Of a stretch of 64,000 nt of DNA, positions 7,052-59,631 are shown in pieces. Origin of the DNA: Actinomycetota bacterium. Its GTDB lineage: Bacteria > Actinomycetota > Actinomycetes > S36-B12. The first letter of the stretch is position 1, and the number at the start of each line of letters is the position of its first letter. The translations under genes and the position numbers were made by a program. The notes below the pieces were generated by a model that worked only from the letters and a program-made list of their open reading frames with translations, did no database searches and was not told the origin of the DNA. Location of the stretch: positions 13,167 to 77,166 of the forward strand of contig JBJOJS010000023.1 in assembly GCA_046046455.1 (NCBI GenBank). The letters run 5' to 3'.

Positions 7052-7145
7052 GCGCGCATCCTGTCAGAGCCGGGGCGGCCGCCCGATGTTCGGGTAACTC
7101 GCTTCTGTCCCTCAAGCACGGGACGCCGCATCTAGGGTAATCCCC

Positions 7146-14085: not shown

Positions 14086-15123
14086 CTAGGGCCGCATGGA
14101 AGCGGTCAGCTTCAACCAGTACTTGACCCGGTCCTGCCAGGGGAATGCGCTCTCGACACCTACCCAGTCATCGACCCACTTATCGGAGAGCAGGCCGTAC
14201 CAGAGTTCACCCGCCACGAAGCCCTTGCCGAAGCTCAGACCCCTGATCGCGAAATCGTGTTCCTTGCGCCAGGTCGCGTAGTTGGTCCACGCCTGGTTGC
14301 CGTCTCCCTGCCCTGCCTCCAGGAGTCCGAGCTTGCTCGGGGTGATTCCGAACTTCACCAGCGTGTCCGCCAATTGGCCCGACGTGGGCACGAAGGCCGT
14401 CGCAGTAATGCCGATGAAATCGTTGGCGTCACCCAAGGACTCGCCCACGCGCTTGAGGAGGTCGAGCACGAGGCTGAAGGTGATCTCGGGCTGCTTCAGT
14501 CCTTCCAGGGACTTCATGAGCGCGTTCAGGGCCTCGGTCGTCTCATCCGGATTGAAGGCGGTGCTCACCGAGAGCGGGATCTTGGTGCTCTCGATGATGG
14601 TGGCCACCTGCTCCACCACCGGCTTGGTCAGCGAGTTGAGGATGCGCACGTCCGTGCTGCTACTGCCGTTGTCGCCCTCGAAAACAAAGGCAAGGGTCAC
14701 CATGATGTCTGCGGTGAGCGTGGTGCTGGTGCCGATGAACTGCGTCTCCTCGAGCGGGCGCACCGCGAGTTCGCCCTCGAACCACGCATCGCCCGTGCCA
14801 TCAGGGATGGAGGCTTCCTCGCCCGGCTCGACCGATCCGGTCTCCTGCGGAGAGTCGGTCACCCACGCCCACTTCGTGCTGCCCGGGACGCCTGTCGTGG
14901 ACTTGATACGGAGTACTGCGACGAAAGGCTCGTCGCCGTCGCTGACGAAGGAGTCTTCTTCGACTTCTTCCGGTCGAACGATGTCGTAGCCGACGAAACC
15001 CTTGAGGGTCGACGCGACCTCCCCCGATGAGGAGGCCGACTCCACGGGGGCCGTGCCCGATGTGCCGCAGGCCGCAAGGAGTCCCGCGAGCACGAGCACG
15101 GTCGCGACTCGGACGGTCCTCAT
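14086..15123 (-). CDS. lipoprotein of unknown function
   Basis: ATG at 15121-15123 gives MRTVRVATVLVLAGLLAACGTSGTAPVESAS (lipobox). 345 aa, acidic, with no motif I recognise. The start lies 1 nt after the stop of the upstream SGNH gene. The upstream part of ORF 14086..15354 is Pro/Arg-rich and overlaps that gene. Confidence 0.7.
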   Translation of the reverse strand: MRTVRVATVLVLAGLLAACGTSGTAPVESASSSGEVASTLKGFVGYDIVRPEEVEEDSFVSDGDEPFVAVLRIKSTTGVPGSTKWAWVTDSPQETGSVEPGEEASIPDGTGDAWFEGELAVRPLEETQFIGTSTTLTADIMVTLAFVFEGDNGSSSTDVRILNSLTKPVVEQVATIIESTKIPLSVSTAFNPDETTEALNALMKSLEGLKQPEITFSLVLDLLKRVGESLGDANDFIGITATAFVPTSGQLADTLVKFGITPSKLGLLEAGQGDGNQAWTNYATWRKEHDFAIRGLSFGKGFVAGELWYGLLSDKWVDDWVGVESAFPWQDRVKYWLKLTASMRP

Positions 15124-15124
15124 G

Positions 15125-16225
15125 TCAGTTCCTTCCCAGAGCGGCGAGGGCCACGCGCGCGAACTCGGCGTACCCCGCCTTATTGGGGTGCACACCGCTG
15201 TCGCCGGCGATGAGGTACGGCGTGCCCGGGCACCATCCGGTGTCGACGTACATCTCGGCGAAATTCTCCTGGGTCGGCGTGGACTGGTTGCTGGGACCGT
15301 CGGTCCCGGTGCCGTCCTTGGCCGCACCGAAGCAGTCGGCCGCGGTGTAGTCACCCGGGGGGACCCCCACGGCGAACTCCGGGTCAGCGGAGGTCAGGCG
15401 TGATCCCTCCGAGTGCGCGGACGTGACGGCGTCCATGGCCTTGGCGATGGTCGCGTTGAGCTCCTCGCGGGCGATGAGCAGGCCCGCAGGCGTGTAGTTG
15501 CCGAGTGCGAGCGCAGGCACCACCTGCGGGTAGGTCAGGACCAGGATCTGGGCATCCGTGCTGTCGAGCAGTCGCGTATAGACGGTGACGAGGGCGTCGT
15601 AGGTGCCGTCCTCGGTGATGATGCGGTTGAAGCATGCGCGGAGTTCCGCCTCCTGGCCGGGTTTGTCGTAGGCGTCGCATCGCTCGCCCTCGCCGAGGAT
15701 GACCTTGCCCAGGGTCGGGTTGCCCCCCAGTGTCATGAGCACGACGTCGGGGTCCTTCGCGGCGACGGCATCCAGGCCCTTGGCTCCATCGATCGTGAAG
15801 AGATCCTCAGCCCACTCCCGGCCGGTCGATCCGGAGATCGCGTAGTTGACGTACGACTCGGCGGGTACGCCGAGTCCCTGGGCGACCTGCGCGGCCCACG
15901 AGACCTGGTTGCCGTAGCCGTAGTCGGGGGCGAAGACGAGGGGCTCCTCGGCGGTGCGCGCCGTGCCGTTGGAGGAGCACAGGTCGTTCTTCTTGTCGGC
16001 AGGGATGGTGCCCTCCCCGACGCAGGTGAAGAACTCTTCGCCGGTCATCTCGGTGCCGTCGTCATAGAAGCCGAATCCCGCCGTGAAGCTGTCACCGAAG
16101 GCGACGATCCGCTCTGCTCCAGCAGGAGCTCCGGAGGATGCCGATTCGATGGGGGTTGCGGCTGTCGACCCGCAGGCGGCTAGGCCAAGGGCGAGCAGGG
16201 GAACGGCGAAGAGACGAGCGCGCAT
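15125..16225 (-). CDS. SGNH/GDSL hydrolase lipoprotein
   Basis: Lipobox LGLAACG. IVAFGDSFTAG (block I), TLGGNP (block II/III) and GDSGVHPNKAGY (block V DxxH). Confidence 0.8.
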   Translation of the reverse strand: MRARLFAVPLLALGLAACGSTAATPIESASSGAPAGAERIVAFGDSFTAGFGFYDDGTEMTGEEFFTCVGEGTIPADKKNDLCSSNGTARTAEEPLVFAPDYGYGNQVSWAAQVAQGLGVPAESYVNYAISGSTGREWAEDLFTIDGAKGLDAVAAKDPDVVLMTLGGNPTLGKVILGEGERCDAYDKPGQEAELRACFNRIITEDGTYDALVTVYTRLLDSTDAQILVLTYPQVVPALALGNYTPAGLLIAREELNATIAKAMDAVTSAHSEGSRLTSADPEFAVGVPPGDYTAADCFGAAKDGTGTDGPSNQSTPTQENFAEMYVDTGWCPGTPYLIAGDSGVHPNKAGYAEFARVALAALGRN

Positions 16226-16323: not shown

Positions 16324-19300
16324 ATGCGCTTCGCTTCTCCGGTCATCATCGCCGTCTCGCTGGCACTCACGGTCTCTGCGTGCACGTCCAGCCCGCCCGA
16401 GTCGGCGACCTCGAGTCCGACGCCCAGCGTCGTGGAGCCGACCGACGATGGTGCCATCGCGGCCGCGGGCACGCCCGTCGCCGATGTGCAGCCGTGGCTC
16501 GCGGGTGTTGTCCCCGGTGGCGACGCGAGCGGGCCGGTGAGCCCGACGGACTGGCCGTCGGCCACAGTGAAGGCTGCCGGGACCTCGACGTCTCTCACGC
16601 CCACGCTGGTCGCACCGGGCATCGACGGCGAAATCCGCGTCGAGATCGTGGACCTCAGCGCGGGCGGCGGGTTCGGCGCCGATGGCACCGGGGAGGCCAC
16701 CGAGCTCGTCTGGTCCGGGAGCGGTCGTGGAGCAGGCACCGAGGTGCCCGCCGACACGCTGCGCCAGGGAGCGACCTACGCCTGGCGGGCGTTGCGCAAT
16801 GAGCAGGTCGTCGGCGGGCCGTGGGGATTCGGCGTCGACGTCGTACGCACGGGCAATGCACCGATGGACCAGCTCTACGGCGTAAACGTCAACATGGTGA
16901 GCGGCGTGGTCTCGACACGCTGGGCCAGTCCGTCCTTCACAGGCGCCGCCGGCGGCATCGTCATCGCCCTGGGTTACCGCGCACCCGTGGAGGCGAAGCC
17001 CGTCAGCTTCCCCGGCCTGCCTGCCGGCTGGTCGTGGGACCTCCCGGGTTCAGGCCTCATCGAGGCACGCGAGTCCGAGATCACATCCGGATCGGGCGAT
17101 GACGCGGGGCCGCGAAGCGTCGTCCTGCTCAACGCGCAGGGCATCGGCCAGACCTTCGTCCGGACGGAGACGGGTGCCTACGTGCCCGGGCTCGCCGACG
17201 GTACGGCGACCGGATACGGCTCCGCCGGCACGCTCATCCGCATCGGCGACGGGATCTGGCAGTTCACCGCACCCGACGGCACCCTCACGCGCTTCGAGGG
17301 CGGCCGCACCGTGTCGGAGTGGAACGCCGGCCTGCCGACTGTCGCCTACACGTGGGATGCGGATGGCCGACTGCTGTCGATGGGCGACGGCATCTCCCGC
17401 ACGCTCTCGATGATCTACGCCGGCACCGGCGACTGCCCCGCCGCGAGCTGGGGCAATGGCTTCGATGTCGCCGAGGGCATGTGGTGCGCGACCGTCAATC
17501 CCGATGGGTCGGTCACGGGTGTCGGATACACGGGCGGACAGATTGGCCTGATCGCCGATGCGGGCGGAGTCAGCGCCGGGTTCGGCTGGGATCGTGCCGG
17601 TCGCCTCAGCGCCGTACGCAGCACGAGCGCCGCGGCCGCTGCCGCGACCGCCGGCGGCGCGTGGGCCGGACCTGAGTTCACGACGCAGATCGCCTACGAC
17701 GCCGTCGGCCGCGTGGAGTCCCTCACTGCGCCAGCTCCAGCGCCCGGAGTGGATCGCGTGCAGAGGTCGTACTCCTACCCCGCCGACGCCTCGTCCAGTG
17801 AGCTGACCGCGTCAGCCACGCAGTCCGTCGTCGGCAACGGCGCACCGCGACTGGTCTCCTCCGACCTCGGCTCGGGCCGCGTCCTGGAGATCACGGTCGA
17901 GTCCGAGACCTGGAAGACCCTCAAGCGCCGCGACGTCGACGGTCGCAGCACGACGGTGAAGTACGACGAGGAGTCCGGGGTCGTCCTTCAGGGCACGGAC
18001 GAGACCGGGCGCACCGTCCAGACACTCACGGACAAGGACTCCATCGCCACCGAAGTGGTCGGGCCCTTCGTCGGCTCCGACCAGGGCGCGATGCGCAACG
18101 AGCGATTCCTCGACGCGACGATCGACAACCCTGCCGCGGGCACGGACTCCCCCACCACTCCCTGGTACGGACTCGCGGCCGTGGTGTGGTCCGACGATGC
18201 AGGGACGCCGGCCTACTGGGACCGCGACCTCCTCGGCGACTCGCTGTCAGCTGAACTCAACGTGCCCGGATCGTGGAACGCCGTCGCGACGGGCACCTGG
18301 AAGGTGCCGGAGAGCGGCGTCTGGAAGGTCGAAGCCACGTCCTCCGACGGCGTCGGTATCGACGTAACCCTCGACGGCGTCCGCTGCACCAGCGACGTCG
18401 GCGAGCCCTGCGAGATAAAGCTCTCCAAGGGAGATCACGCGCTCGCGCTCAGCCTCGTCGGTCAGGGTGCCGGATCTTTCGCCGTACGCGCAGGGCGCGG
18501 AGGGGATGCGCCCAAGGCCCTGCCGATCGACGCACTGCGCCCCGGCTACCGTGCGGCGACGCTCATGTCGATCAACGACGTCGTCGACGGTCGCAATGTG
18601 GGCACGCAGGTGATCGAGAACTCCCGGCCCTGGTCCCCCTCCCCGGAGTCGATCCGATCGGCAGGCGACCTCGTCACCCGCTTCACCTACGAGCCCACGG
18701 ATCCCCGGAAGGGGAGCTGGGGCCGACCTCTCGACACGACGACACCGGGCGGGGCGGTCCTCTCCACGTCGTACTACGGCAACGACGAGCAGGTCGAGGA
18801 CCCGTGCACCGGCACTTCCTCCCCGCAGGTCGGCCAGCCCAAGACCCAGGTGCGCTACGACGGCGTACGCGTGACGACGGTCTACAACGCCCAGGGCTAT
18901 CCCGCGTCCGTGACGACGGAGGGCGCAGGCGGCGAAGGCCAGCGCACCTGCGCGACGTACGACCCGGCCGGCCGTCCGCTCACGACGAGCACGAAGACGC
19001 TCGGCGGCGAGGAACTGGCATCCTCGTCGACGGAGCGGGTCTGGCAGGACGGTCAGCTGGTCACCACGGTGACGTCAACGTCACCGCAGGGCACCTTCAC
19101 CACGCGCTCGGTCACCGACATCCTCGATCAGATCGTGTCGTACACCGACGCATGGGGCACGACCACCGACTACACGCTTGATGCCGAGGGGCTCATCGTG
19201 AAGCGCACCACGACGCCCAAGGGTGCGTCCGCGCCAGCCCTCGTGGTCGAGTACGGGTTCGAGAAGGGCAGCGGCTCGCTCTCCACGGTGAGCGCCAACG

Positions 19301-21006
19301 GGGAGGTCCTCGCCGCACTCGACTACGCCGAGACAGGGCTGCTGGACTCGGTGACCTACCCCGGCGGCGTCACCGCGACCTACGCTTACGCCGCCCCGGG
19401 CACGGTGGAGTCGATGGCCCTGAAGACGGCAGACCTGACCTTCAGCCAGGACCGCGAGCGCAATGCCGCAGGTCGCACGCTGGCGAGCACTCTGCGCGTG
19501 CGCAGCGACGGCGATGACGTGCTGCAGTCGCGCTGGGAGTACGGGTTCGATGACGCCGGGCGCCTGACGAAGGCGACGCTCAGCAGCAAGGGCGATGTCG
19601 ACGTCGTGGGCGGTGACAAGCGCACCTTCACCTACTCCTACGGCTCACCCGAGGCGTGCCCGACGACGGCGGGAGCCGACTTCAACCGCACGGGTGGCAG
19701 CCGCGACGGAGTCGACTTCGTCACTTGCTACGACGCGAAGTTCCGCATGGCGTCCACCACGGATCCGCGCCTCGCGGCGAAGGGCAAGGCGGAGGCGACG
19801 TACGACGCACTCGGTCGGCTCACGGCCCTCAGCGGCGACGTCCCCCTCGAGATCACCTGGGGAGCAGGCACGACGCCCCTGGCGATCACGCAGGGCGGTG
19901 CCGTGACGACACTCACCAACAGCGGGCCGAGCCTCATCGAGTACGCCGTGGACGGAGTCGCGACTCGACTGTCCTACGCGTCCGCGGGGCAGGCGCCCGC
20001 CCTCCTCCTCGACGATCAGGGCAAGGTCACCGCCATGCTCGTGGGCCTGCCCGGCGGAGCCCTCGCGCGGCTCGACGCCGCCGGCGCGCTCTCGCAGATC
20101 GACTACACCGACATCTTCAGCGCCGCGCTCACCAGCACGGCACCGGACGGCACCTCGCTCGGCTCCGGGCAGGCGCATCTCGCGACGCGCTTCGGCCCCT
20201 ACGGTGAGCCGCTCGTCTCCTCGGATGCGCTCGCGCCGGCAGCGACCTACGGCTGGCAGGCGGGGCCGCGCAATCCCACGGTCGGCGGGTGGCACGACAT
20301 CACCCTCACGGCGCGTCCCTACCACCCGTGGCTCGGCCAGTTCCTCGCCTTCGACCCGGCGGTCGGAGCGTCGACCACGGGCTACGGCTACGGCGATGGC
20401 AGCCCTGTGGACCGCCCTGACTTCAGCGGCAACTTCCCGATCTTCGAGACGCTGGCCATCGCCGGCGGAATCCTCGCCGGGGTCGCAGGCGTCGGCATGG
20501 GCCAGGTCAAGGTCGGCGCCAGCAAGGCGGGTCGCACTCTCGTCATCGGGGGCGCCGCTGTGGGCGTAGCGGCGGCCGTGACCGGCATCGTCGGCACCTG
20601 GACCACCGAGACCACCGACTCGAGCCAGGGACTCCAGATCGCCTCCACCGTCGTCGCAGGTCTGGGCATCCTCGCGATCGGGGGCGCCGCGGCGGTCCAG
20701 AAGTATCGCGAAGCGCAGTACATGACCAAGCTGCGTGCCTACGCCGACGACGCCATCAAGGCCTCCGAGGTCGCGTACACGAAGGAGTTGCAGAGCCTGC
20801 GACAGCAGCAACTGGCGATGTACGCCCCGGGCCTCACGGCCGAAGAGGGTCTGGAGTTGGTCGCCAAGTACGAGGAGAGCAAGGCAATCCTGGCCGAACT
20901 CATGGGCCGCTACCAGGGTAAGCAGGTCCACATGGACGCCCTGCACAAACAGGACCTCGAGTTCCTGAGCTTCTACAACGGCGAGCGGCCGCGGTGGTTC
21001 AACTGA
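16324..21006 (+). CDS. RHS/YD-repeat lipoprotein (RHS-1) with PA14-like insert and hydrophobic C-terminal tail
   Basis: 1560 aa. Lipobox LTVSAC. Many YD-type repeats (YTWDADGRLLS, YDAVGRVES, YDPAGRPLT, FDDAGRLTKA, YDALGRLTAL). RHS core end reads ARPYHPWLGQFLAFDP...GYGYGDGSPVDRPDFSG. A PA14-like block lies at about 18160-18540. The tail is at 20437-21003. Confidence 0.9.
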   Translation: MRFASPVIIAVSLALTVSACTSSPPESATSSPTPSVVEPTDDGAIAAAGTPVADVQPWLAGVVPGGDASGPVSPTDWPSATVKAAGTSTSLTPTLVAPGIDGEIRVEIVDLSAGGGFGADGTGEATELVWSGSGRGAGTEVPADTLRQGATYAWRALRNEQVVGGPWGFGVDVVRTGNAPMDQLYGVNVNMVSGVVSTRWASPSFTGAAGGIVIALGYRAPVEAKPVSFPGLPAGWSWDLPGSGLIEARESEITSGSGDDAGPRSVVLLNAQGIGQTFVRTETGAYVPGLADGTATGYGSAGTLIRIGDGIWQFTAPDGTLTRFEGGRTVSEWNAGLPTVAYTWDADGRLLSMGDGISRTLSMIYAGTGDCPAASWGNGFDVAEGMWCATVNPDGSVTGVGYTGGQIGLIADAGGVSAGFGWDRAGRLSAVRSTSAAAAAATAGGAWAGPEFTTQIAYDAVGRVESLTAPAPAPGVDRVQRSYSYPADASSSELTASATQSVVGNGAPRLVSSDLGSGRVLEITVESETWKTLKRRDVDGRSTTVKYDEESGVVLQGTDETGRTVQTLTDKDSIATEVVGPFVGSDQGAMRNERFLDATIDNPAAGTDSPTTPWYGLAAVVWSDDAGTPAYWDRDLLGDSLSAELNVPGSWNAVATGTWKVPESGVWKVEATSSDGVGIDVTLDGVRCTSDVGEPCEIKLSKGDHALALSLVGQGAGSFAVRAGRGGDAPKALPIDALRPGYRAATLMSINDVVDGRNVGTQVIENSRPWSPSPESIRSAGDLVTRFTYEPTDPRKGSWGRPLDTTTPGGAVLSTSYYGNDEQVEDPCTGTSSPQVGQPKTQVRYDGVRVTTVYNAQGYPASVTTEGAGGEGQRTCATYDPAGRPLTTSTKTLGGEELASSSTERVWQDGQLVTTVTSTSPQGTFTTRSVTDILDQIVSYTDAWGTTTDYTLDAEGLIVKRTTTPKGASAPALVVEYGFEKGSGSLSTVSANGEVLAALDYAETGLLDSVTYPGGVTATYAYAAPGTVESMALKTADLTFSQDRERNAAGRTLASTLRVRSDGDDVLQSRWEYGFDDAGRLTKATLSSKGDVDVVGGDKRTFTYSYGSPEACPTTAGADFNRTGGSRDGVDFVTCYDAKFRMASTTDPRLAAKGKAEATYDALGRLTALSGDVPLEITWGAGTTPLAITQGGAVTTLTNSGPSLIEYAVDGVATRLSYASAGQAPALLLDDQGKVTAMLVGLPGGALARLDAAGALSQIDYTDIFSAALTSTAPDGTSLGSGQAHLATRFGPYGEPLVSSDALAPAATYGWQAGPRNPTVGGWHDITLTARPYHPWLGQFLAFDPAVGASTTGYGYGDGSPVDRPDFSGNFPIFETLAIAGGILAGVAGVGMGQVKVGASKAGRTLVIGGAAVGVAAAVTGIVGTWTTETTDSSQGLQIASTVVAGLGILAIGGAAAVQKYREAQYMTKLRAYADDAIKASEVAYTKELQSLRQQQLAMYAPGLTAEEGLELVAKYEESKAILAELMGRYQGKQVHMDALHKQDLEFLSFYNGERPRWFN

Positions 21007-21012
21007 CCTGAT

Positions 21013-21050
21013 CCGCACGGCCGATCGGCTACAGGCGATCGGCCGTGCGG
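21013..21050. terminator. 15-bp stem hairpin between the convergent RHS-1 and RHS-2 genes
   Basis: CCGCACGGCCGATCG (21013-21027) pairs perfectly with CGATCGGCCGTGCGG (21036-21050) around an 8-nt loop. The RHS-2 stop codon (21029-21031) lies in the loop. There is no clear U-tract. Confidence 0.5.
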
Positions 21051-24000
21051 TGGTCGCCCTCGCGCGAGGGCATGCCCTCGCAGCCACCCTCGACGGGGCA
21101 GTCCTGCGGATCCGCGGCTCCCGCCTCGCCCTGCTCGGCCTCCGCGGCCTGCTGCGGCTGCTGACCGCCGCCGAGCAGGAGCTGGAAGCCGGCCACGGTG
21201 AGCGAGGCCTGCGTGATCGTCTTCAGCAGCGTGGGCTTCTCGTTCGCCACCTGCGATGAGGCGCGGATGGCGCTGTCGGCGAGCTCATCGGCGCTGTCGA
21301 TCACGGAGGATGTCGCCTTCGACGCCTCCTTCCACGCCTTGTATCTCCCGGCACCCCAGGTCGCCATGTCGATGCCGACGGAGATCGCCTCGAAGACGAG
21401 ATCCGTCGTCGTCAACTCCTCGAAGCCGCCTCGCTCCCACGCGGTCACCGAGAGCTGCGCCGCGCTCGTCGTCAGGGAGATCGCCAGCACGATGGCGAAG
21501 GATCCGGGCAGCATGATCGACGCGGTGATGCTCGCCACGGCGAGCACATTGCGCGCGAAGTCGAACCACGAGTAGGCGCCGGTGGGGTCCGAGTAGTTGA
21601 CCGGATCGGCCTCGGCGAAGCCGTAGCCGGTCGAGGAGGATCCCGGGACAGGGTCGAAGGCGAGATAGGCGCCGAGCGCGGGCAGATAGGGCCGCGCGAG
21701 GGACAGCACGAGGCCGGAGCCGCCGGAGAGTGTGGGCTCCAGGCGCGAGAATCCGTAGCCGTAGGAGGGCGGATCGGCTGCGAGCGCGCCTGCGGACGGC
21801 CGGCCCGTCTCCAATGGTTCGCCGAACGGGCCGAGGGCCTCGGCGAGGACTCCTCCGCCGGCGCCCCGCACGGCCTGGCCACGGGCATCGGTGCGCACCA
21901 CGACCTCGCCGCGGATGCCCGGGTGATCGAGGACGACATCGCCACTTGCCAGGGACTTCTTCCACAGCGCGCCACCGGGCAGCAGCAGGCGCACCTGCGT
22001 GGGACTGCCCTGCCCATCGAGCAGCAGTCCCGGGGCGATGGCGGTCGGATTGGCATAGGCCATGAGGGTGGTGGTCGAGGCCGAGTCATCCGACGTGCGT
22101 TGTGCGACCAGGCGGCCGAGCGCATGCGCGAGGTCGGAGGTGACCGGCACGGCACCCATGCCGTCGACGATCGTGGCGGGCAGGCCGCCCCAACTCCAGT
22201 CCAGGCTGAGCGTGGCTCCCTCGGCCTCGCTCGACGTCAGCCGGCCGAGCGCATCCCAGGAGAGCCGGGCCGAGCCGCCCTGCGGGGCCATGAGCGGATC
22301 CGTCGTCGATACGGCGCGCCCCGCACCGTCGTAGCAGGTCACGTAGTCGCGATCGTCGCGTCGCCCGCTCGTGCGATCGAGGTCGATACCGGGATCCCCC
22401 GACGTGCCGCACGAGGCGTCCTGTGGGCCGAAGCGGTAGTCGAAGCGCCGCCGATCGGCGCCCACGCCCGCCTGGTCGCCCTCGACGTCGAGGATCGCGG
22501 TCGACAGGCGCGCCGCCTTGTCGTAGGCGTAGCCCCATTCGCGCTTCGTGCTCGCCTCGCCCGCGCGCACGACCCGCGTGGTGCGGGTGGAGATGCGGCC
22601 GGCGTCGTTGGTGCCGGTCGCATCGGTGACGAGCGAGCCGTCTGCCAGGGTGATCGCCGTCGACTGCACCGTGCCGTTGGGGCGGTACTCGAACTCCTGG
22701 GAGACGGCGGAGGCGTATTCCACGCTCGCGACTCGCCCGGCACCGTCGTACCGGACTCGGGCGATCTCCCTCCCGTCGATTGACATGCGCGTGGGCCGAC
22801 CCGTATCCGCGTCGAACTCCTGGCTCGATGTCACGAGTTCCTTGCCGTCGACCGAGGTGGTGCGGCTGATCTGATTGCCCTGGACGTCATACCGATAGTC
22901 GAAGACCGCTCCGGTGAGGTCGCGATAGGTGACCAAGCGGCCCAGGAGATCGACGGTCGTCTCGGTGACCGCCTGCGCGGGGAATATCTCGCCGGGGGGA
23001 GTGGTCGTCACCTGCGTGCGCGTGCGGCGCGGGTCGCCCTCGACCCCAGCGCTGACGATCGCCTCCTCCACGAGATCGCCCTTGACGCCGTAGAGACGTG
23101 ACGACGTGACACTGCCATCGCTCGCGAACGTCCAGCAGGCGAGTTCGCCCGCCTGGCCGCCGGTGCGGATGGCGATCGTGCGGCCGGCGGCATCGAACCA
23201 TCGCTCGACCACGACCCCGTCGGTGCGGGTGATGGAGCGCACCTGGCCCGCCTGCGGCGCGGCTGCGGCATCCGGGCAGGGCGGTGACTCACTGGCGCCC
23301 GTGACCGGCCAGTACGCCGTTGTCGTGACCCGACCGCCCGGCGTGGTCGCGGTGAGCTTGCGACCCCAGCCGCCCTGGCCGACCGGCTCGTAGGTCGCGC
23401 GCGAGACGCGACCCCCGGGCGACTCCACCTGCGTGGGGCGCCCGGTCCAGGGCTCGTCGTACGTCGTGTAGGTGTCGAAGGCGGAGCCCTCGGCGAATCG
23501 GTCGTTGGTCAGCGTCGCCGTCTGGACCCCGAATCCCGGCGTGACCGATGACATGACTTCGAGCTTTGACGGCAGCCTGCCGCCTCCGTCCACCTCGGCG
23601 CCCACGCGCAGGCTCGACTCGGCGGTGCTGGAGGACATATCGATGCGCAGAGCATGCTCGCCGTCGCGCAGATCGAATCGGCAGATGCCATCGGAGTCCG
23701 CCTCGCAGGGTCGGTTGTCGACGTACACCGTGACGTCTGCCTCATCCGCGGCTCGCACCTGCAGAGCCCACGTCGTCGCTTTGCCGTCCCCGGCGCCGGT
23801 ATCCGTGCGCCAGGTCCCCGCGAAGCGGCCCGACCACGAGCCCTGGCCCACCGGACTCGCAGCCCAGTCGACCTCCACGCGCCCATCGCGCGCGATCCAG
23901 CCCCCGGCGGCAAGGGGACCTGTCGCTCCCGGCGACGCCCAGTAGTCGGCGGCCAGTCCCTCGTACGCCTCGCCATCGCGCATCTGGTCGACCTGCGTGG

Positions 24001-25771
24001 TCTGCGAGAACGCGGCATCACCCACGGTCGAAGGCCCGGTGAAGCCACTGCGCCGCCCTTCGCCGTACGTGTATCGGGTGACGCGACCCTCGTAGTCGGT
24101 GATCGACTCGACCCGCCGGCCAGACTTGTCCCAGGCCATGGATGTCGTCGCTCCGTCGCGATCACGGCGCGTGAGCGGACGCCAGTCGGCTGCACTCACG
24201 GTCATCTCGAAGAGCCGCCCTTGGCCGATCGATGACTGCAGCGGCTGGACCCCGGCACCATAGGAAAAGTCGCCCGCGAGGGATCCTGCGATGACGGCTG
24301 CACTCACCGGGGTCGCATCGAGGGACGCCTGCTGCGAGATCAACGGGTACTCGTAGAGGTGCACGAGCCGCTCCGCACCGGGAGCGGGTGCCCCCTCGGC
24401 CACACCCCACACTCGACCCGAGGGGTCGTAGGCAACCTGCGTGAGCACGTCGGTGGCCGCGCGATCGACGGTGCCCGAGGCGACAGCCGCGTTGGCCATC
24501 GGCTGGCGCACGGCCGCGAGGCGCCCGGAGGCATCCCACCCGATTCCCAGTCCGATCTCGCTCATCGGTCCGGGGCCGCCGACGGCATCGGCGATGAGCC
24601 CGATCTGCGGTGTGCCAGCGGCATCGACGTAGTGGATCTGCGTCGACGTGCCGTCCCACCAGGTGACCTGGCACAGCATCGCTTCCGGCGCAGCAACGAA
24701 TCCCGATGCGACAGGGCAGTCCGCGCCGTAGGCGAAGTCGATCGTGCGCTCGCTCGGATCGGTCACCGTGCGGGGCAGACCCTCACCCGTCCACTGGACT
24801 CGGCCGGCGAGGAGCCCCGAGGGGTACGACGCGACCGGTCGATCACCCTGGAACTCGGTGATGTCGCCATTGGTCTCCGTGAGCTGCCAGATGTCGCCTT
24901 CCCGCACCAGGGTTCCGGACGTCGCCGCGTCCATCCGGCGGCCGTTGGACCAGGTCTGCGTGTAGACGCCTACGTCGTTGCGGGTGAAGGTCATCGATCG
25001 TCCGGTGACATCGGCGACGTAGACCGAGGTCGGCACTCCATCGCGCACCGACTCCGACGGCTCGAATGTCGTCCACCGCGATGCGAGCGGCACGCTCATC
25101 CGCCATCCCGCCGGCATGCCGGCGCTTGAGGTCTGGCCGGGCTGGTAGGTGAGGAGGGCGAATGCCTGCCCGGCGACCGTCGGGTAGGAGCGCGAGGTCC
25201 AGGTGAGGGTCGGCACGCCGGTGATGAGGTGCGTCGTCACGCCGCCGAGCGCATCGCGGGGAGCGAGGCCGGGACGCGTCGCGTCGATGTTGAGCGAGAA
25301 GGGTCCCGCCCAGTCCCCGGAGGGGGCGTTGGCATTGCGTGCACGCCAGGAGTACTGCCGACCATCCTCGAGGGTGCCCGGGGGCACCTGCCATTCACGG
25401 CGCGAGCCCCCCGACGCCAGTGGCTCGTCGACGCCCGGCTCGTCGCCGGCCGAGACGTCGTAGATCTCGAAGGTCACATCCTCGGCCTCGACCTGCGCAG
25501 GGGCGACGAGCGTGGGCGTCACGGACACGGCGAGGCCGGAGGCATCGAGAGCCGACGGCGGGAAGGCCTCCGGAAGGGCCGGACCCGAGCCCGCCGAAGG
25601 GGGCAGCGCCCCCGCCTCAACCGCAGGTCGCAGCCCCGCTGCTGCCGGAGCGCCCGCGTCGGCAGACTGCGATGCGGACTCGACCGGGGCAGGAGTCGGC
25701 GGTGTCGAGGTGCACCCCGCCAGCACAGCGAGCGCGCTCGCCAGCGCGACGAACCCCGAAGCGCGCCTCAC
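21029..25771 (-). CDS. RHS/YD-repeat lipoprotein (RHS-2) with PA14-like insert and hydrophobic C-terminal tail
   Basis: GTG 25769-25771 gives VRRASGFVALASALAVLAGCTS (lipobox). YD repeats include YDPSGRVWG, FDAAGRTIA, YDGAGRVASV, YDKAARLSTA and WDALGRLTS. Core end reads ARPYLPALGAYLAFDP...ADPVNYSDPTGAY. The tail is at 21032-21577. The start overlaps the upstream gene's stop (GTGA). Confidence 0.9.
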   Translation of the reverse strand: MRRASGFVALASALAVLAGCTSTPPTPAPVESASQSADAGAPAAAGLRPAVEAGALPPSAGSGPALPEAFPPSALDASGLAVSVTPTLVAPAQVEAEDVTFEIYDVSAGDEPGVDEPLASGGSRREWQVPPGTLEDGRQYSWRARNANAPSGDWAGPFSLNIDATRPGLAPRDALGGVTTHLITGVPTLTWTSRSYPTVAGQAFALLTYQPGQTSSAGMPAGWRMSVPLASRWTTFEPSESVRDGVPTSVYVADVTGRSMTFTRNDVGVYTQTWSNGRRMDAATSGTLVREGDIWQLTETNGDITEFQGDRPVASYPSGLLAGRVQWTGEGLPRTVTDPSERTIDFAYGADCPVASGFVAAPEAMLCQVTWWDGTSTQIHYVDAAGTPQIGLIADAVGGPGPMSEIGLGIGWDASGRLAAVRQPMANAAVASGTVDRAATDVLTQVAYDPSGRVWGVAEGAPAPGAERLVHLYEYPLISQQASLDATPVSAAVIAGSLAGDFSYGAGVQPLQSSIGQGRLFEMTVSAADWRPLTRRDRDGATTSMAWDKSGRRVESITDYEGRVTRYTYGEGRRSGFTGPSTVGDAAFSQTTQVDQMRDGEAYEGLAADYWASPGATGPLAAGGWIARDGRVEVDWAASPVGQGSWSGRFAGTWRTDTGAGDGKATTWALQVRAADEADVTVYVDNRPCEADSDGICRFDLRDGEHALRIDMSSSTAESSLRVGAEVDGGGRLPSKLEVMSSVTPGFGVQTATLTNDRFAEGSAFDTYTTYDEPWTGRPTQVESPGGRVSRATYEPVGQGGWGRKLTATTPGGRVTTTAYWPVTGASESPPCPDAAAAPQAGQVRSITRTDGVVVERWFDAAGRTIAIRTGGQAGELACWTFASDGSVTSSRLYGVKGDLVEEAIVSAGVEGDPRRTRTQVTTTPPGEIFPAQAVTETTVDLLGRLVTYRDLTGAVFDYRYDVQGNQISRTTSVDGKELVTSSQEFDADTGRPTRMSIDGREIARVRYDGAGRVASVEYASAVSQEFEYRPNGTVQSTAITLADGSLVTDATGTNDAGRISTRTTRVVRAGEASTKREWGYAYDKAARLSTAILDVEGDQAGVGADRRRFDYRFGPQDASCGTSGDPGIDLDRTSGRRDDRDYVTCYDGAGRAVSTTDPLMAPQGGSARLSWDALGRLTSSEAEGATLSLDWSWGGLPATIVDGMGAVPVTSDLAHALGRLVAQRTSDDSASTTTLMAYANPTAIAPGLLLDGQGSPTQVRLLLPGGALWKKSLASGDVVLDHPGIRGEVVVRTDARGQAVRGAGGGVLAEALGPFGEPLETGRPSAGALAADPPSYGYGFSRLEPTLSGGSGLVLSLARPYLPALGAYLAFDPVPGSSSTGYGFAEADPVNYSDPTGAYSWFDFARNVLAVASITASIMLPGSFAIVLAISLTTSAAQLSVTAWERGGFEELTTTDLVFEAISVGIDMATWGAGRYKAWKEASKATSSVIDSADELADSAIRASSQVANEKPTLLKTITQASLTVAGFQLLLGGGQQPQQAAEAEQGEAGAADPQDCPVEGGCEGMPSREGDHRTADRL

Positions 25772-27198
25772 TTGTTGGTGATCGTCGCGAGCCAGGAGGC
25801 TCCAAACGCGTAGGAGGAGCCAGCGCTCCCGCCCGTGGAGGCGCACTCGATCGAAAGCTGGGACTGGGCCAGCGAGGACGCGTCGCTCTGACAGGAGATC
25901 AGCGCCTGCTCGACCTGCTTGCCGTTCTCGTTCACCTTCTTGATGGACGGCCTGCCGCCATTACCGCGGACGCCGTCGAGTTCCAAGGACGCAGCGATGC
26001 GCAGGGTGACGTTCTTGTCGAGGAACTCACGGGACGCCGCCGGCATCCTCGTGGTGAAGGTCAGGCTCGCATCGGGCCAGCAGGCATTCTCCGCAGAGGT
26101 GGCACCCTTGCGGCAGGCGTAGACCTCACCCGTCGATGACGTGATGTTGATCGGCTCGAGCTTCAATTGCAGCGTGGTCTTCGCGTTCCTCGCGAGAGCG
26201 TAGGCACCCACCGTGATGACGTTTCCGTCACCGGGCCCCACCACCTGGCCCACGGGCGACTTGCGCTGCGCCCACTGCGCCCCCTGAGTGAGGCTCGCAT
26301 CCACGATGCGCCAGGCGAGGAAGAGCTTTTCGTTCTTGAAATCCCCCCCGGGATTCTTGGCCGGATCCTGCTTGTACACCTTCACCGTGGCGTCCTTGCC
26401 CACTACCCCAGTCCACGTGGTCTTGATATCGACCCGCATCGGTGCCGTCCAGGCATAGGTGTCGTAGACGAAGTCCCACTTGTATCCGCTGTTGTACGTG
26501 TCCGTCCAGCAGCCCACCACGGAAGAGTTCCGCACCTCGCAGCTCGGGTATGTCTTCACGTCCTTGGTGTCGTTGTCGCGGGTGTCCCATGGCGCCTTGA
26601 TTTCCGCCGACGCGAGGGCGGAATCGATGCAGCCGCGATCCTTGGTGAAGGTGGACACACTGCCATCCTGGCTGCGGTCGACATTGGTGCACTTCCACCA
26701 CACGTAGCCGTTGGGGTCGCGCGCCCAGTCACGATCCTCCTGATGTCCCCACCAGCCGGGGTGATCGCTCCAGACCTTGCCGTCCCAGTAGTAGTACGTC
26801 TGCAGGTTCGACACGCCCATCGGCGGCCGGGCGCACTCCCACTCGCCTTCCTCATCGTCAAAGTTCCACGCCTTCTCACCCGTCTGCATCAGCCAGACGA
26901 CGTCGGTGTTGGACGGATCGACATCGGTACGGGCGCGGAAATCGTTGCGGAGCCAGACGACATCGAGGTTGTTGTAGATGCGCGCATTGGCCGTGACGTC
27001 ATCTCGCGAGCGGCACTTGGACTTCGGGTGCTGCTCTCCCGCCACCTCGCCCTCCCCGGCCGACTCCACCGGCGCCGGGCTCGAAGCCGGTGCGGCGTCC
27101 GAGGAGGAGGTACCTGATGTCGACGTGCCTGATGTGCAGGCGGCAAGCGCGAGCGCCCCCGCCACAGCGACTACCACCGCGTGCATCTTCCTGGCCAT
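25768..27198 (-). CDS. Trp/Cys-rich lipoprotein of unknown function, translationally coupled to RHS-2
   Basis: MARKMHAVVVAVAGALALAACTS (lipobox). 476 aa with Trp-rich stretches (YYYWDGKVWSDHPGWWGHQEDRDWARDPNGYVWWKC) and about 11 mature-chain Cys. I recognise no family motif. GC is lower than the neighbours by eye (about 58-63% on two sampled 60-nt lines). Confidence 0.75.
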   Translation of the reverse strand: MARKMHAVVVAVAGALALAACTSGTSTSGTSSSDAAPASSPAPVESAGEGEVAGEQHPKSKCRSRDDVTANARIYNNLDVVWLRNDFRARTDVDPSNTDVVWLMQTGEKAWNFDDEEGEWECARPPMGVSNLQTYYYWDGKVWSDHPGWWGHQEDRDWARDPNGYVWWKCTNVDRSQDGSVSTFTKDRGCIDSALASAEIKAPWDTRDNDTKDVKTYPSCEVRNSSVVGCWTDTYNSGYKWDFVYDTYAWTAPMRVDIKTTWTGVVGKDATVKVYKQDPAKNPGGDFKNEKLFLAWRIVDASLTQGAQWAQRKSPVGQVVGPGDGNVITVGAYALARNAKTTLQLKLEPINITSSTGEVYACRKGATSAENACWPDASLTFTTRMPAASREFLDKNVTLRIAASLELDGVRGNGGRPSIKKVNENGKQVEQALISCQSDASSLAQSQLSIECASTGGSAGSSYAFGASWLATITNK

Positions 27199-27297
27199 GC
27201 TCCGAGCGTACGTCGCACGAGGCGGGAGTGCGGGGTGATGTTCGGGTTTCTCACACGTGCCGGGCCCGGGCTACGTTCCCCGGGATACCTTCGCGCT
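27199..27297. promoter_or_regulatory. divergent promoter region between the lipoprotein/RHS-2 operon and RHS-3
   Basis: 99-nt gap between divergent starts. It contains GTTCGGGTTTCTCACACGTG (27240-27259) 38 nt before the RHS-3 ATG. This is similar to 16267-16286, which lies 37 nt before the RHS-1 ATG. Confidence 0.35.
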
Positions 27298-30200
27298 ATG
27301 CGCACTCGCCAGCGACTGTTCGCCGCTGTCGCCGTCACGGCGAGCCTTGCCATGGTGGCCACCGGCTGCACCACCTCCACTGAGCCGTCGCCGACGCCCT
27401 CCGCCGCACCCGTGGAGACCGCTGAGACGTCCGGGGGAGTCGCCGCGTCGTCGATCAACGCGGCGGACGTCCAGCCCTGGGTCGCGGGGACGGTCCCGGG
27501 TGGCGATGCCACCGGGCCGACGTACCCGACCGAATGGCCCGACGCCCCCGTGATCGGAGGCGGGCAGACGACATCGCGCACGCCCACGCTCATCGTCCCC
27601 GACGATGCACGGCTCTCCGGCGATGTGCAGGTGCAGATCGTCGACCTCGGCATCGGCGGTGGCTTCGGCCTCGACGGCCGCGGAGAGGCGACCGGTATCG
27701 CCTTCGAGGGGCGCCGCAGCACACGAGGCTTCACCGTCCCCGCAGACACCCTGGTCGACGGGGGCACCTACGCCTGGCGTGCCGGCAGCCCCGACGACTG
27801 GGCGGGACCGTGGGTCTTCACGATCGACACCGTCCGCTCGCAGAACGCTCCGGTCGACTCGGTGGGCAACATCAACGTCAATCTCATGTCGGGAGTGCCG
27901 GCCGCGCGATGGACGAGTCCCGAAGTGTCCGGGGCGCTCGGCGCCTTCGGCATCGGCGTGATCTTCCGACCCGGCAGCCCCGCGACTCCAGGACTCCCCG
28001 AGGGCTGGAACTGGGTGCTCCCCGGGAGCGGGTTCATCAGCCTGCAGGAGTCCGAGGTGATGTTCGGCGATGCGGCCGACGTATCGCTCTTCGGTGGTGA
28101 TGCCGGCCCCCTCAGCGTGACCCTGCGCACCACCAACGGCGCCGGCCTGACCTTCGTGCGCACGGAGACCGGCGGCTACGTCCCGGGCCTGTCGGACGGC
28201 ACCGCGACGGCGTACTCGCGCGGTGGTGTGCTCACGCGGATGAGCCCGAACACATGGCAGTTGTCCACTCCCGACGGCTCCATGACGCGATTCGTGGACG
28301 GCCGCGCCGTGAGCGAGTGGTCACGCGGCAACCCGGTCGCCAACTTCACCTGGGACGAGCAGGACCGCCTCGTCAGCGTCAGTGACGGCACCTCCCGCAC
28401 GACGACACTCGCCTACGCGGGCGGGTCATGCCCGGCGGTGGACTGGGGCAACGGCTTCGATGTCGCCGACGGCATGTGGTGCTCGGCGACGTACGCCGAC
28501 GGCACCGTCACCGGCATCGGCTACGTCGGCGGCCGGATCGGGCTGATCGCCGACCCCGGCGGATTGGGCACGGGCTTCGGCTGGGACGGCGCCGGTCGCC
28601 TCGCCGCTGTGCGCTCTCCGGGTGCCACCGCAGCGGCAGCCACCGCGGGAAATGACTGGGCCGGGGCGGACCTCACCACTTCTGTCGCGTACGACGGTGT
28701 CGGTCGTGTCGCGTCCCTGACGTCCGCGGCGACAGCACCCGGAGGCGAGCGGCTGACACGCACCTACACCTACCCGACGGGCGCACCGCGCGACGGCGAG
28801 CTGAAGGCGGCGGTCATGCAGGAGGGTGGTCCCTCCGCGGGGACCGTCCTTCAGGTCACCGCGACAGCCGACCGCTGGCAGGTAACCGAACGGGTGGAAG
28901 CAGGTCGGCTGACGACCACCACCGACTACGACACGGCAGGGGTCGTCACGCGGGGCACCGACCCGCAGGGTCGCACCCTCACGACGAAACTCGACGACGA
29001 GGCGCTCATGCGCACGTCGACAGGGCCGTACACCGGCTCCCCTGACGGCGCGCTCCGGACCGATCGCACGCTGGACGCCACAGCGACGAATCCCGAGGCC
29101 GGCGCCACCTCACCGACCGAGCAGTGGCACGGCCTCTCCGCGATGGTGTGGTCCGGTGATGAGGGCCGGGCCGAGTGGTGGGACGAGCGCACCCTCGAGG
29201 AGCGCGGTGTGGGCGGAGTCGTCGGCACCGAAGGCGAGTGGGAGGCCCAGGCATCCGGACTCTGGAAGGTGCCCGAGTCGGGCGTCTGGACGATCGAGGC
29301 GACGGCCTCCGACGACCTGCGCATCGAGGTGCTCGTCGACGGCGTTCGGTGCCCGGAGGGCGACGGCTGCGAGATACGCCTGGACCAGGGCGAGCACAAC
29401 CTCGCCATCGCCCTGCGCGGCAAGGGGAGGGGATCGTTCAGCGTCAAGGCGGATCGGGGCGGTGAACCCACGCGCATCCCCATCACGCAGGTGCGGCCGA
29501 ACTTCAACACGGCGACGGTCGTATCACTCAACGACAACGTCGAGGGTCGCAATGTCGGCTCGCAGGTCTACGACTTCGCTCGGCCCTGGACCCAGGCACC
29601 CGAGAGCGTCACCGCAAGCGGCGGCCTGCGCACGGCGTTCACGTACGAGCCGGAGTCGCCCGCGTCCGATCAGTGGGGCCGTCAGACGGGCACGCGCACC
29701 GCCGGCGGCGCCACCATGGCGACGGCGTACTACGGCGCCGACGAGCAGGCGAGCGGTGCCTGCGGCGGTGGCGGCGTACAGGGAGGACTCGCGCGCCAAA
29801 TGACCCGCTACGACGGGGTCACCATCACTTTGGTCTACGACGGTGCGGGCCGTGTCCAGTCGATGGTCACGTCCGGGGACGGTGCTTCCGAGACGACCTG
29901 CCTCGCCTACGACGCTGCCGGACGGACGGTGTCGACGAGCATCGCCGACAAGACCGGCGCCACGCTGCGCTCCTCGATGTACACCTACACCTGGTCCGAC
30001 GGCCGGCTCACGACGCAGCTCACCTCCACCGTCGCGGGTGAGTCCTTCACGACATCGACGACCTACGACATCGCCGGCAGGGTGCTGGAGTTCGTGGACG
30101 CATGGGGCGCGAAGACGTCATACGACTATGACGTCGAGGGCAACAACACCAAGCGCACAACGACAGCCCCCGGTGGCTCGTCACCCATCCTGACCGTGGA

Positions 30201-34604: not shown

Positions 34605-34664
34605 AAGCCGCGAGCCTAGTCGTGCCTGGTCGGTGCCCCCTCCTACGCGACGTAGGATGACCCG

Positions 34665-38681: not shown

Positions 38682-39968
<1,287 letters not shown>

Positions 39969-40030
39969 GGGGATCACCTCGAGACGGGCGGGGAGGACAT
40001 TCCCCGGGCCCACGATGGGCCCGCAGAAGA

Positions 40031-59630: not shown

Positions 59631-59631
59631 C

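Follow-up and report, generated by a model that had tools for sequence, protein, structure and literature searches.

Conserved Membrane-Helix Modules Behind RHS Shells With an Autoprotease-Type Triad in Freshwater Actinomycetota

THREE RHS SHELL PROTEINS IN ONE CHROMOSOMAL REGION

A stretch of 64,000 nucleotides (nt) from an Actinomycetota bacterium of the lineage S36-B12 (GenBank assembly GCA_046046455.1, contig JBJOJS010000023.1, positions 13,167 to 77,166 of the forward strand), hereafter the window, carries three very large paralogous genes, R1, R2, and R3, for proteins of the RHS/YD-repeat type (Table 1). Here, we focus on the part of these proteins that follows the RHS-associated core, the tail, in which an earlier note on the same DNA had seen either an encapsulated membrane-inserting toxin or a C-terminal membrane anchor. 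The window has a GC content of ~68%, and the GC content of third codon positions (GC3) is 0.85-0.88 in the three genes, with 0.88 in R1. Identity is 49% between R1 and R3 and 34% between R1 and R2. The R1 and R2 genes are convergent, with stop codons only 22 bp apart, while the convergent purB has its end 7 bp from the R3 stop codon. Between R1 and R2 lies the hairpin that the note had reported. Its perfect GC-rich stem overlaps the final R2 codons, the R2 stop codon falls in its loop, and a T-run is absent from it. It is probably a bidirectional terminator.

Table 1. Features of the RHS region in the window and of comparison loci. Positions are those of the window unless a locus is named.
Feature	Position	Strand	Description
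R1	16324-21006	+	1560-aa divergent RHS/YD-repeat protein (translation, Pfam/NCBIfam matches)
R2	21029-25846	-	RHS/YD-repeat lipoprotein, 1605 aa as longest open reading frame
R3	27181-31818	+	RHS/YD-repeat lipoprotein, 1545 aa as longest open reading frame
R1 autoprotease motif	20314-20433	+	R1331...D1344...D1366-x-x-G1369, predicted P1 N1370
R2 autoprotease motif	21575-21694	-	R1385...D1398...D1420-P-T-G1423, predicted P1 A1424
R3 autoprotease motif	31249-31368	+	R1357...D1370...D1392-P-S-G1395, predicted P1 M1396
R1 tail	20434-21003	+	190 aa; three Gly/Ala-rich helices at 20440-20496, 20539-20595, 20638-20694
R1 C-terminus	20695-21003	+	103 aa, charged, helical, after third helix
R2 tail	21032-21574	-	181 aa; hairpin, amphipathic helix, further hydrophobic helix, linker, Cys motif
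R2 Pro-Gly helical hairpin	21428-21568	-	alignment with three orthologs; low-confidence AF2 boundaries
R2 amphipathic helix	21353-21409	-	Asp/Glu/Asp on one face, invariant in four orthologs
R2 terminal motif	21062-21100	-	CPxEGGCxGxPxR, invariant among aligned orthologs
R3 tail	31369-31815	+	149 aa; helices at 31384-31440, 31486-31542, 31573-31629, then ~60-aa charged tail
R1/R2 hairpin	21013-21050		perfect 15-bp stem between the convergent genes; -39.8 kcal/mol, z = -6.35
476-aa lipoprotein gene	25768-27198	-	Trp/Cys-rich; directly upstream of R2, end overlaps longest R2 reading frame
Lipoprotein and GDSL lipase genes	14086-16225	-	just upstream of R1; real lipoprotein start near MRTVRVATVLVLAGLLAAC
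LuxR-type response regulator	7098-7832		upstream of RHS cluster
Histidine kinase	7832-9673		upstream of RHS cluster
S8 subtilase	9670-11064		upstream of RHS cluster
purC	6167-7051		purine biosynthesis
purB	31825-33246		purine biosynthesis
purD	33348-34682		purine biosynthesis
purA	38682-40013		purine biosynthesis
1012-aa protein	268-3306	+	Big_7 Ig domain; secreted/surface type
467-aa protein	34665-36068	+	Big_1 domain; secreted/surface type
Trypsin-fn3 protease	59587-61089	+	
Distant clade member	L010: 850-6204		ordinary signal peptide and hydrophobic-helix tail
Distant clade member	L013: 1729-7032		ordinary signal peptide and hydrophobic-helix tail
Distant clade member	L014: 1714-6996		ordinary signal peptide and hydrophobic-helix tail
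Distant clade member	L015: 1525-6861		ordinary signal peptide and hydrophobic-helix tail
Relative with beta-rich domain	L002: 5929-10854		conserved domain of ~110 aa after three helices
Relative with beta-rich domain	L004: 2-4210		conserved domain of ~110 aa after three helices

From profile matches, R1, R2, and R3 are assigned as shell proteins with YD/RHS repeats and an RHS-associated core that carries the protease motif. Pfam RHS_repeat was found in R2 (7e-13), R3 (6e-8), and R1 (2.4e-4, at 21.8 bits just under the 22-bit cutoff), and NCBIfam YD_repeat_2x in all three above its cutoff. The match to Rhs_assc_core (TIGR03696) ends at residue 1369 of R1, 1423 of R2, and 1396 of R3; against a cutoff of 32.5 bits, R3 passes with 32.6, and R1 (25.8) and R2 (26.5) fall below. 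When compared with the PDB, a profile of the family matched the Rhs core domains of type VI secretion systems (T6SS) at 1.4e-9. An AF2 model of residues 346-1545 of R3, built on a 5-sequence alignment, is beta-rich with a mean pLDDT of 47 and a tail below 50, and serves for secondary structure only. NHL, TEN_YD-shell, and related Pfam models had no match in R1, R2, or R3 even at E <= 10; a faint precomputed TEN_YD-shell match exists only for a neighbor of the R2 ortholog P0004. One insert in the shell (18240-18510 in R1, residues ~640-730, with equivalents in R2 and R3) holds two invariant Cys and conserved Trp in the pattern …GTWKVPESGVWKVEATSSDG…DGVRC…C…L..G.H.L…. It has no Pfam match and looks like a receptor-type beta-sandwich domain in models whose AF2 confidence is only 50-68.

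All three proteins begin with signals of the lipoprotein type. In R1, the signal MRFASPVIIAVSLALTVSAC leads to Cys20 (...LTVSAC). The lipobox of R2, LAGC (...VLAGC), places its Cys at residue 45 of the longest open reading frame (nt 25712-25714), so that the true R2 start is probably downstream of 25846; likewise, the R3 lipobox ATGC (...VATGC) has its Cys at residue 63 (nt 27367-27369), and the probable start is therefore the Met of MRTRQRLF. A twin-arginine consensus was found neither in these three proteins nor in the relatives examined, and Tat export of a pre-folded shell was rejected for this reason. Distant members of the clade have ordinary signal peptides without the lipobox Cys and nevertheless keep helical tails, in tandem arrays (Table 1). 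Because they lose the one and keep the other, the tail, rather than the lipid anchor, is the constant feature of the clade.

THE TAILS OPEN WITH TRANSMEMBRANE-GRADE HELICES

The tails of the window proteins are 149-190 amino acids (aa) long. They open 2-10 residues past the core motif with hydrophobic Gly/Ala-rich helices and continue into a charged or variable C-terminus. This is the design that the earlier note had described, and every tail peptide quoted in it is found in place. The R1 helices have Kyte-Doolittle (KD) values of 1.75-2.11 in 19-residue windows, with segment charges of +2/0, 0/-2, and +4/-1. R2 is more than a simple single long helix and less simple than the note had described: its Pro-Gly hairpin leads through an acidic loop to an amphipathic helix, and a long amphipathic stretch then separates this helix from another hydrophobic one, behind which come a linker of Gln, Ala, and Glu and the terminal Cys motif, the rest of the R2-type C-terminal linker being variable. 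An AF2 model of this tail from 4 orthologs has a pLDDT of 39.6 and again informs on secondary structure only. The terminal Cys pair could bind a metal, or could form a disulfide of the kind that the C-terminal domain (CTD) of BiTLP, discussed below, forms with its shell.

Are these helices hydrophobic enough to reside in a membrane? They were scored with KD windows of 19 residues (threshold 1.6) and, in simplified form, with a position-independent Hessa sum. The calibration set consisted of 54 transmembrane-like segments of other GC3-supported genes of the window, including cytochrome oxidase subunit I and multi-pass proteins. Within the ~1550 residues of R1, R2, and R3, a KD value of at least 1.6 is found nowhere but in the signal peptides and in the helices behind the core. 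The tail helices average 2.03, as opposed to 2.07 for the transmembrane (TM) segments of the window, and their simplified Hessa sum is 1.69 vs 1.95 +/- 2.8 kcal/mol. They are thus as hydrophobic as the genuine TM helices of the same window and score as transmembrane. Their composition is different, being richer in Gly (17.5 vs 9.6%) and Ala (23.7 vs 16.4%) and poorer in Leu (8.8 vs 17%). Motifs of the form small-xxx-Gly-xxx-small occur 3.2 times per 100 aa in the tails and 0.95 times in the membrane proteins of the window. The count of 89 compares with 62 +/- 7 in composition-matched shuffles and is reached in 0/500 of them, a significance that is overstated in that the sequences are related. 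The strict GxxxGxxxG motif is not enriched (0.22 vs 0.23). Set beside the glycine-zipper toxins that depolarize membranes (Tse5-CT, EsxX-CT, and similar), the tails have the looser motif in excess but not the strict one, and they share no sequence homology with a solved toxin.

Searches of the window tails and those of ten relatives against Pfam, NCBIfam, and the PDB, by sequence and by profile, returned no significant match to a toxin or an enzyme. The earlier remark that nuclease, deaminase, and ADP-ribosyltransferase-type motifs are missing holds up in the Pfam and PDB searches, and no soluble toxin fold was matched either. Weak matches to Tetraspanin, DUF202, CopD, claudin, MotA, and the ATPase c-subunit were dismissed as the generic similarity of TM segments.

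Scans of genomes and metagenomes yielded 22 loci. The records of L001 to L010 name uncultured Actinomycetota metagenome-assembled genomes (MAGs), several of them from lakes and two of them Nanopelagicales. Together with protein searches, these loci provided a family set of 27 sequences that span the core end. In 26 of the 27, two to four hydrophobic helices start 2-10 residues past the core motif; the sole exception is L018, the most distant relative, with an ordinary hydrophilic tail. The ~26 helix-bearing tails come from 15 loci and proteins and, across the family, tail lengths run from ~138 to 257 aa.

An all-against-all BLAST of the post-cleavage tails separated two clusters. The first holds R1, R3, L002, L003, three L004 tails, L010a, L013a, L014b, and L015b; the second holds R2, its orthologs, and a group of tails starting with ANEWSWFWQ. 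It had been proposed that the tails of the three paralogs are unrelated in sequence. This is so for R2 against the R1/R3 type, since a profile-profile comparison of the two clusters detected no similarity (hhalign probability 1.2%), but not for R1 against R3, which are homologous and colinear from helix 1 to helix 3 (pairwise E = 0.002, with 23% identity across 124 aa). The R1 tail also matches that of its L003 ortholog (36% identity, E = 3e-13) and the R3 tail those of L004 (E = 5e-11). Among the seven closest R1/R3-type tails, three Ala/Gly positions of helix 1 and one Gly of helix 3 are invariant, and two Gly remain nearly invariant when eleven such tails are compared.

Charges around the helices follow a consistent pattern. 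In all of the ~20 tails examined, the residues before helix 1 are acidic (0-1 Lys/Arg vs 1-4 Asp/Glu), and the 15 residues past the last helix are basic in nearly all (+2 to +5). In most three-helix tails, the first loop is basic and the second acidic or neutral; the R3 loops are mixed. By sequence, this is the positive-inside signature predicted for a three-helix topology with the N-terminus outside and the C-terminus inside, where the R2-type hairpin is counted as two helices. The extensions that follow the helices are short (45-120 aa) and vary between lineages, and those of ten further relatives match no known domain. As a separate observation, a beta-rich domain follows the three helices in L002 and L004 (Table 1). 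It has the pattern YDxGNG…WxTxxGEGTxFxYQVGGV…FGTD…MSFWWNP and no Pfam match, and no other domain behind the helices of the family is clearly globular.

AN AUTOPROTEASE-TYPE TRIAD AT THE CORE END

Four positions at the end of the core, Arg (0), Asp (+13), Asp (+35), and Gly (+38), are invariant in 27/27 family sequences, although these are only 30-78% identical to each other. RHS proteins are known to cut themselves at a motif described as DPxG-x18-DPxG (PMC10684867). Three catalytic residues have been listed for this reaction; teneurins are without the last Asp, and their C-terminus is not released (PMC9935623). As far as the sequences can tell, the invariant positions of the family correspond to the Arg and the two Asp needed for RHS autoproteolysis. 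The first half-motif is DPxxG in the family, deviating from DPxG. At the second, the canonical P1 residue is Leu, giving the motif DPxGL. Beyond the predicted scissile bond, the first hydrophobic helix follows after 2-10 residues.

TAILS ARE INHERITED WITH THEIR SHELLS

If the tails were swappable toxins, they would be expected to change while the cores remain. The earlier note had framed them in this way, as a variable module of ~1.1 kb formed by the R1 and R2 tails. The orthologs of R2 (P0004, L005, the minus-strand gene of L004, and P0006) speak against it. Against P0004, the closest, identity rises from 72.5% in the R2 core to 77.5% in its tail, and the helix-bearing block of residues 1401-1500 is, at 86%, the best-conserved 100-residue stretch of the whole protein. 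Core and tail are 66% and 60% identical to L005 and the L004 copy and 49% and 43% to P0006, and for none of these orthologs does identity drop at the junction. An exhaustive phmmer search with the R2 tail, the tail type to which this result applies, among 1.84 billion representative proteins returned 3 matches, all of them C-termini of RHS orthologs: two in RHS proteins of ~1560-1580 aa and one in a 293-aa protein that bears the end of the core motif. Tails of the R1/R3 type diverge faster than their cores (core vs tail, 51 vs 39% for R1 and L003, 58 vs 33% for R3 and L004c), but their sequences remain recognizably orthologous and colinear. In a neighbor-joining tree of the last 290 core residues, a rough tree without support values, each subclade has one tail type. 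On this sequence evidence, shell and tail diverge together: the tail is inherited with the shell, its type follows the core clade, and the tails are not polymorphic. With tails conserved among orthologs, the polymorphic framing falls.

There is also no sign of an immunity gene. After none of ~20 family members was a small same-strand gene found downstream, which is where the immunity genes of Tse5, WapA, and TLP loci are placed; what follows is a tandem RHS gene (gaps of 17-176 bp), a convergent RHS gene (8-99 bp), or an unrelated gene. An R2-type gene also converges with one of the R1/R3 type in L004, in L005, and on the P0004 contig. As there is neither an immunity gene nor tail swapping, the target of the tail is probably not sibling bacteria.

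THE NEIGHBORHOOD OF THE RHS GENES

The RHS cluster sits in the housekeeping chromosome, among genes of purine biosynthesis (purC, purB, purD, and purA are scattered around it), and the site is syntenic across genomes. MAG contigs L001, L002, and L007 share its flanks, namely a response regulator, a histidine kinase, a subtilase, a lipoprotein, and a GDSL lipase; in L002, the synteny extends over the LuxR-type response regulator, the histidine kinase, the S8 subtilase, and purC. The pair of lipoprotein and GDSL lipase genes, or the lipoprotein gene alone, stands upstream of the RHS genes in the same three contigs. The L007 lipase is 84-92% identical to that of the window, and L007 is the closest relative found. 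The window contains no tRNA gene, and no signs of a mobile island were seen at the locus, where no dedicated search for mobile elements was made.

A second lipoprotein gene lies directly upstream of R2. Its 476-aa product has no Pfam family match, but homologs adjoin RHS genes in L003, L005, L006, L011, and L016, and a 465-aa gene, also without a Pfam match, occupies the corresponding upstream position on the P0004 contig. Beside most RHS genes of the family this neighbor is absent. Where present, the 476-aa lipoprotein is a conserved partner, perhaps an accessory, receptor, or protective factor. The region of the window is otherwise rich in envelope proteins, among them two with bacterial Ig-type domains (Big_7 and Big_1) and a trypsin-fn3 protease (Table 1).

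CARGO OF THE SHELL OR ANCHOR OF THE PRODUCER

R1, R2, and R3 are members of a small clade of RHS shells that are exported by Sec and passed on vertically in freshwater Actinomycetota; among the close relatives, the lipoboxes point to lipid anchoring. Behind the shell, there is a conserved membrane-helix module, in effect of three helices and rich in small-xxx-small packing motifs, rather than a swappable toxin. What such a module does is a matter of interpretation, and sequence alone does not decide whether it is cargo of the shell or an anchor of the producing cell. Both readings came from the earlier note, and both survive as the leading models once the polymorphic toxin framing is taken from the first.

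The reading we favor, at a probability of roughly one half, is that of a conserved membrane-helix cargo that is cleaved and stored inside the shell without an immunity protein. The RHS aspartyl protease, intact by its residues, would cut the chain 2-10 residues before helix 1, and the hydrophobic module would be kept shielded within the shell. Experiments on mosquito SGS1, Pseudomonas Tse5, and Bacillus BiTLP provide precedents for such shielding. Upon a trigger, the module would be released and would insert into a membrane. The flanking charges fit a topology with the N-terminus outside and the C-terminus inside, and the short lineage-variable extension comes next in the chain. The effect of such an insertion might be a pore, depolarization, or the delivery of the C-terminal extension.

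Several findings point in this direction. The solved RHS/YD shells keep their cleaved C-terminal fragment enclosed (PMC10684867; PMC13018210); with a spacing of 2-10 residues, helix 1 would then have to start inside the shell. The invariance of Arg, both Asp, and Gly throughout the family also supports stored cargo, as teneurins, which retain their C-terminus, are without the last Asp. The helices look functional rather than passive: in R2, the helix block is more conserved (86%) than the core (72.5%) and carries an invariant acidic face, small residues are conserved in the R1/R3-type helices, and zipper motifs are enriched. The design also runs through the clade, in ~26 tails, with L018 as the one exception. 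The tails of the window, as well as those of most family members, are within the size of known cargo, which is 16 kDa in 32,000 A3 for Tse5 and ~200 and ~300 residues for Tc toxins and SGS1, respectively; the BiTLP cavity measures 44,000 A3.

Other findings weigh against a stored cargo. Residues at P1 vary across the family (N, A, M, L, E, Q, G, T, and F) and, given this variability and the deviating first half-motif, cleavage at the D-x-x-G site is likely from sequence but not assured. Since the signals are of the Sec type, lipoprotein or ordinary, and a twin-arginine motif is lacking, the chain would be threaded unfolded from N- to C-terminus. TM-grade helices with positive-inside flanks are the usual stop-transfer anchors of SecYEG, and the full export of three of them, followed by packing into a shell, is puzzling. 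Unlike Tse5 and BiTLP, the family has no immunity gene and its tails are not polymorphic. The longest tails (~257 aa, ~27 kDa) would fill or exceed a cavity of the size found in Tse5, and the structure predictions, with pLDDT values of 47 and 40, are too poor to place the tail. Missing immunity genes and vertically conserved tails suit an anchor but suit, to the same degree, a cargo aimed at something other than siblings, as in SGS1.

The foremost alternative, which we hold to be less probable, is that the tail is a stop-transfer membrane domain of the producer itself. Its helices would leave the translocon sideways and settle with the N-terminus out and the C-terminus in, the charged extension being cytoplasmic. 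Much of what was described above suits such an anchor: the lipobox or ordinary signal peptides without a Tat motif, a hydrophobicity equal to that of the genuine TM helices of the genome, the positive-inside charge pattern over ~20 tails (with the R3 loops mixed), extensions of 45-120 aa without an enzyme or toxin family match, the missing immunity gene in tandem and convergent arrays with gaps of 8-176 bp, and the vertical conservation of tails at a syntenic core-chromosome site among the pur genes. Two variants can be pictured. Left uncleaved, the chain would hold the shell at both ends; once cleaved, it would leave a lipid-anchored shell and a separate protein with three TM helices. The covalent double tether suggested earlier is unlikely, as the invariant autoprotease triad should cut the tail from the shell. 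Tentatively, the function of an anchor could be structural, adhesive, or signaling and not toxic, similar to that of a teneurin or a GAIN-domain adhesion receptor. The same triad that would sever the anchor from the shell argues against this alternative, as does the short distance of 2-10 residues between the scissile site and helix 1, given that solved shells keep the fragment enclosed. There is no RHS precedent for a C-terminal anchor in the producer membrane, and the three hydrophobic-tail cases studied are all encapsulated (PMC9935623; PMC10684867; PMC13018210). Moreover, the helices are conserved beyond the needs of a passive anchor, as seen in the invariant acidic face of R2.

It is improbable that the family consists of classical polymorphic antibacterial pore-forming toxins like Tse5 or WapA, with exchangeable tails, and draws its immunity from a gene at another site or from the 476-aa lipoprotein. 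In favor of this, the tails are hydrophobic and rich in small-residue zippers, as has been reported for depolarizing toxins (PMC9637101; PMC12744356), R2-type genes have a conserved lipoprotein gene beside them, and R1/R3-type tails diverge faster than their cores. Yet identity does not drop at the core/tail junction of R2 orthologs, the R2 tail occurs only on its own orthologs among the representative proteins, and tail type is congruent with core clade. In addition, none of ~20 family members has a small gene downstream, most RHS genes are without the lipoprotein neighbor, and the chromosomal site is one of housekeeping genes, without a tRNA gene in the window or visible mobile signs. That the tails are low-complexity C-termini without a membrane role, a by-product of a genome of 66-71% GC in which Gly/Ala/Val codons are favored, is effectively refuted, since the helices appear in none of the three proteins outside the part that follows the core, keep their position, number, and flanking charge in ~26 relatives, form the most conserved part of R2, and exceed composition-matched shuffles in motif content. 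What probability remains is left for readings beyond these four.

COMPARISON WITH KNOWN RHS AND YD SHELL SYSTEMS

The favored cargo reading has its nearest counterpart in a eukaryote. The SGS family of mosquitoes, studied by cryo-EM, has an RHS/YD shell acquired from Wolbachia-like bacteria; in SGS1, the six predicted TM helices right after the protease site sit inside the shell and are followed by a further domain (PMC9935623). Like the family described here, SGS1 thus combines a shell bearing the Arg/Asp/Asp triad with several predicted TM helices and an additional C-terminal region, and it too is conserved, not polymorphic, and lacks an immunity gene. It differs as a eukaryotic protein of 3364 aa with six helices, beta-propellers, lectin/CBM domains, a furin site, and a Tox-SGS domain, whereas the proteins of our family have three helices, carry a bacterial lipobox, and end in short extensions. 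The tails have no significant sequence similarity to SGS proteins, the only match being SGS4 (9on3) with E = 0.29 over the core end. SGS1 is the closest case in design, and it shows that possession of predicted TM helices need not mean residence in a membrane.

Tse5 (RhsP1) of Pseudomonas aeruginosa likewise has an RHS shell with a protease of the DPxG-x18-DPxG type, and stores a hydrophobic C-terminal fragment of ~150 aa that inserts into membranes and depolarizes cells (PMC9637101; PMC10684867). In contrast to the family, Tse5 is delivered by a T6SS via its PAAR domain, is accompanied by the immunity protein Tsi5, and belongs to a polymorphic family; our proteins have Sec/lipoprotein signals, no immunity gene, vertically conserved tails, and no match to the Tse5 tail. 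BiTLP of Bacillus inaquosorum is closer in its export, being a YD shell with a Sec signal on the cell surface, the CTD of which is cleaved and enclosed (PMC13018210). This CTD has a predicted TM segment and permeabilizes membranes on export. BiTLP is one of the bacterial teneurin-like proteins (TLPs). TLPs occur in Gram-positives and Actinomycetota as well, and those of Gram-negatives are predicted lipoproteins (PMC13018210). However, TLPs have a superfold of FN-plug, NHL, and YD-shell, mostly with a TIP domain, none of which was detected in R1, R2, or R3. Their CTDs are highly polymorphic and almost always accompanied by an immunity gene, neither of which applies to the family.

The anchor alternative would have its model in the metazoan teneurins, which also place a YD shell in a membrane-tethered surface protein with a conserved, non-toxic role. 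These differ in an N-terminal TM helix (type II), in the loss of the last catalytic Asp, and in a C-terminus that runs through a long linker inside the shell before it exits by an opening (PMC9935623; PMC13018210). The family, by comparison, has an intact triad and a linker of 2-10 residues. On the toxin side, WapA of Bacillus subtilis shares with the family a Sec signal and RHS repeats at the surface of a monoderm cell. Unlike the family, it carries domains that bind the cell wall and a toxin that is a soluble tRNase, is followed by the immunity gene WapI, and is polymorphic between strains. WapA toxins of Streptococcus suis have been the subject of a separate report (PMC12704120). Our literature search found no account of RHS proteins in this lineage, nor of any RHS protein anchored by its C-terminus in the membrane of its producer.

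WHAT THE FAMILY MAY MEAN

As a tentative proposal, the family would represent a class of conserved RHS shells without immunity, in which the cargo is a preformed membrane protein of three helices that ends in a short cytoplasmic tail and is not a weapon against kin. It is conceivable, though far from certain, that the shell delivers this cargo in trans, as a free-living counterpart of SGS1, or is cleaved beside the membrane in the manner of GAIN-domain receptors. With similar caution, the RHS shell of streamlined freshwater Actinomycetota may be a housekeeping device of the envelope or of cell interaction.

RHS shells are known almost entirely as containers for polymorphic toxins that come with immunity genes. 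In this clade of uncultured bacteria, shell and autoprotease are retained, a conserved membrane-helix module takes the place of a swappable toxin, immunity genes are missing, and three to four copies are maintained in the core chromosome. If the module is cargo, the clade would be a bacterial relative in design of the SGS proteins and a simpler system in which to study the release of helices into a membrane. If it is an anchor, this would be the first RHS shell built into the membrane of its own producer, and the bacterial state closest in logic to the teneurins. Either outcome would bear on how a container for toxins comes to serve a non-toxic purpose.

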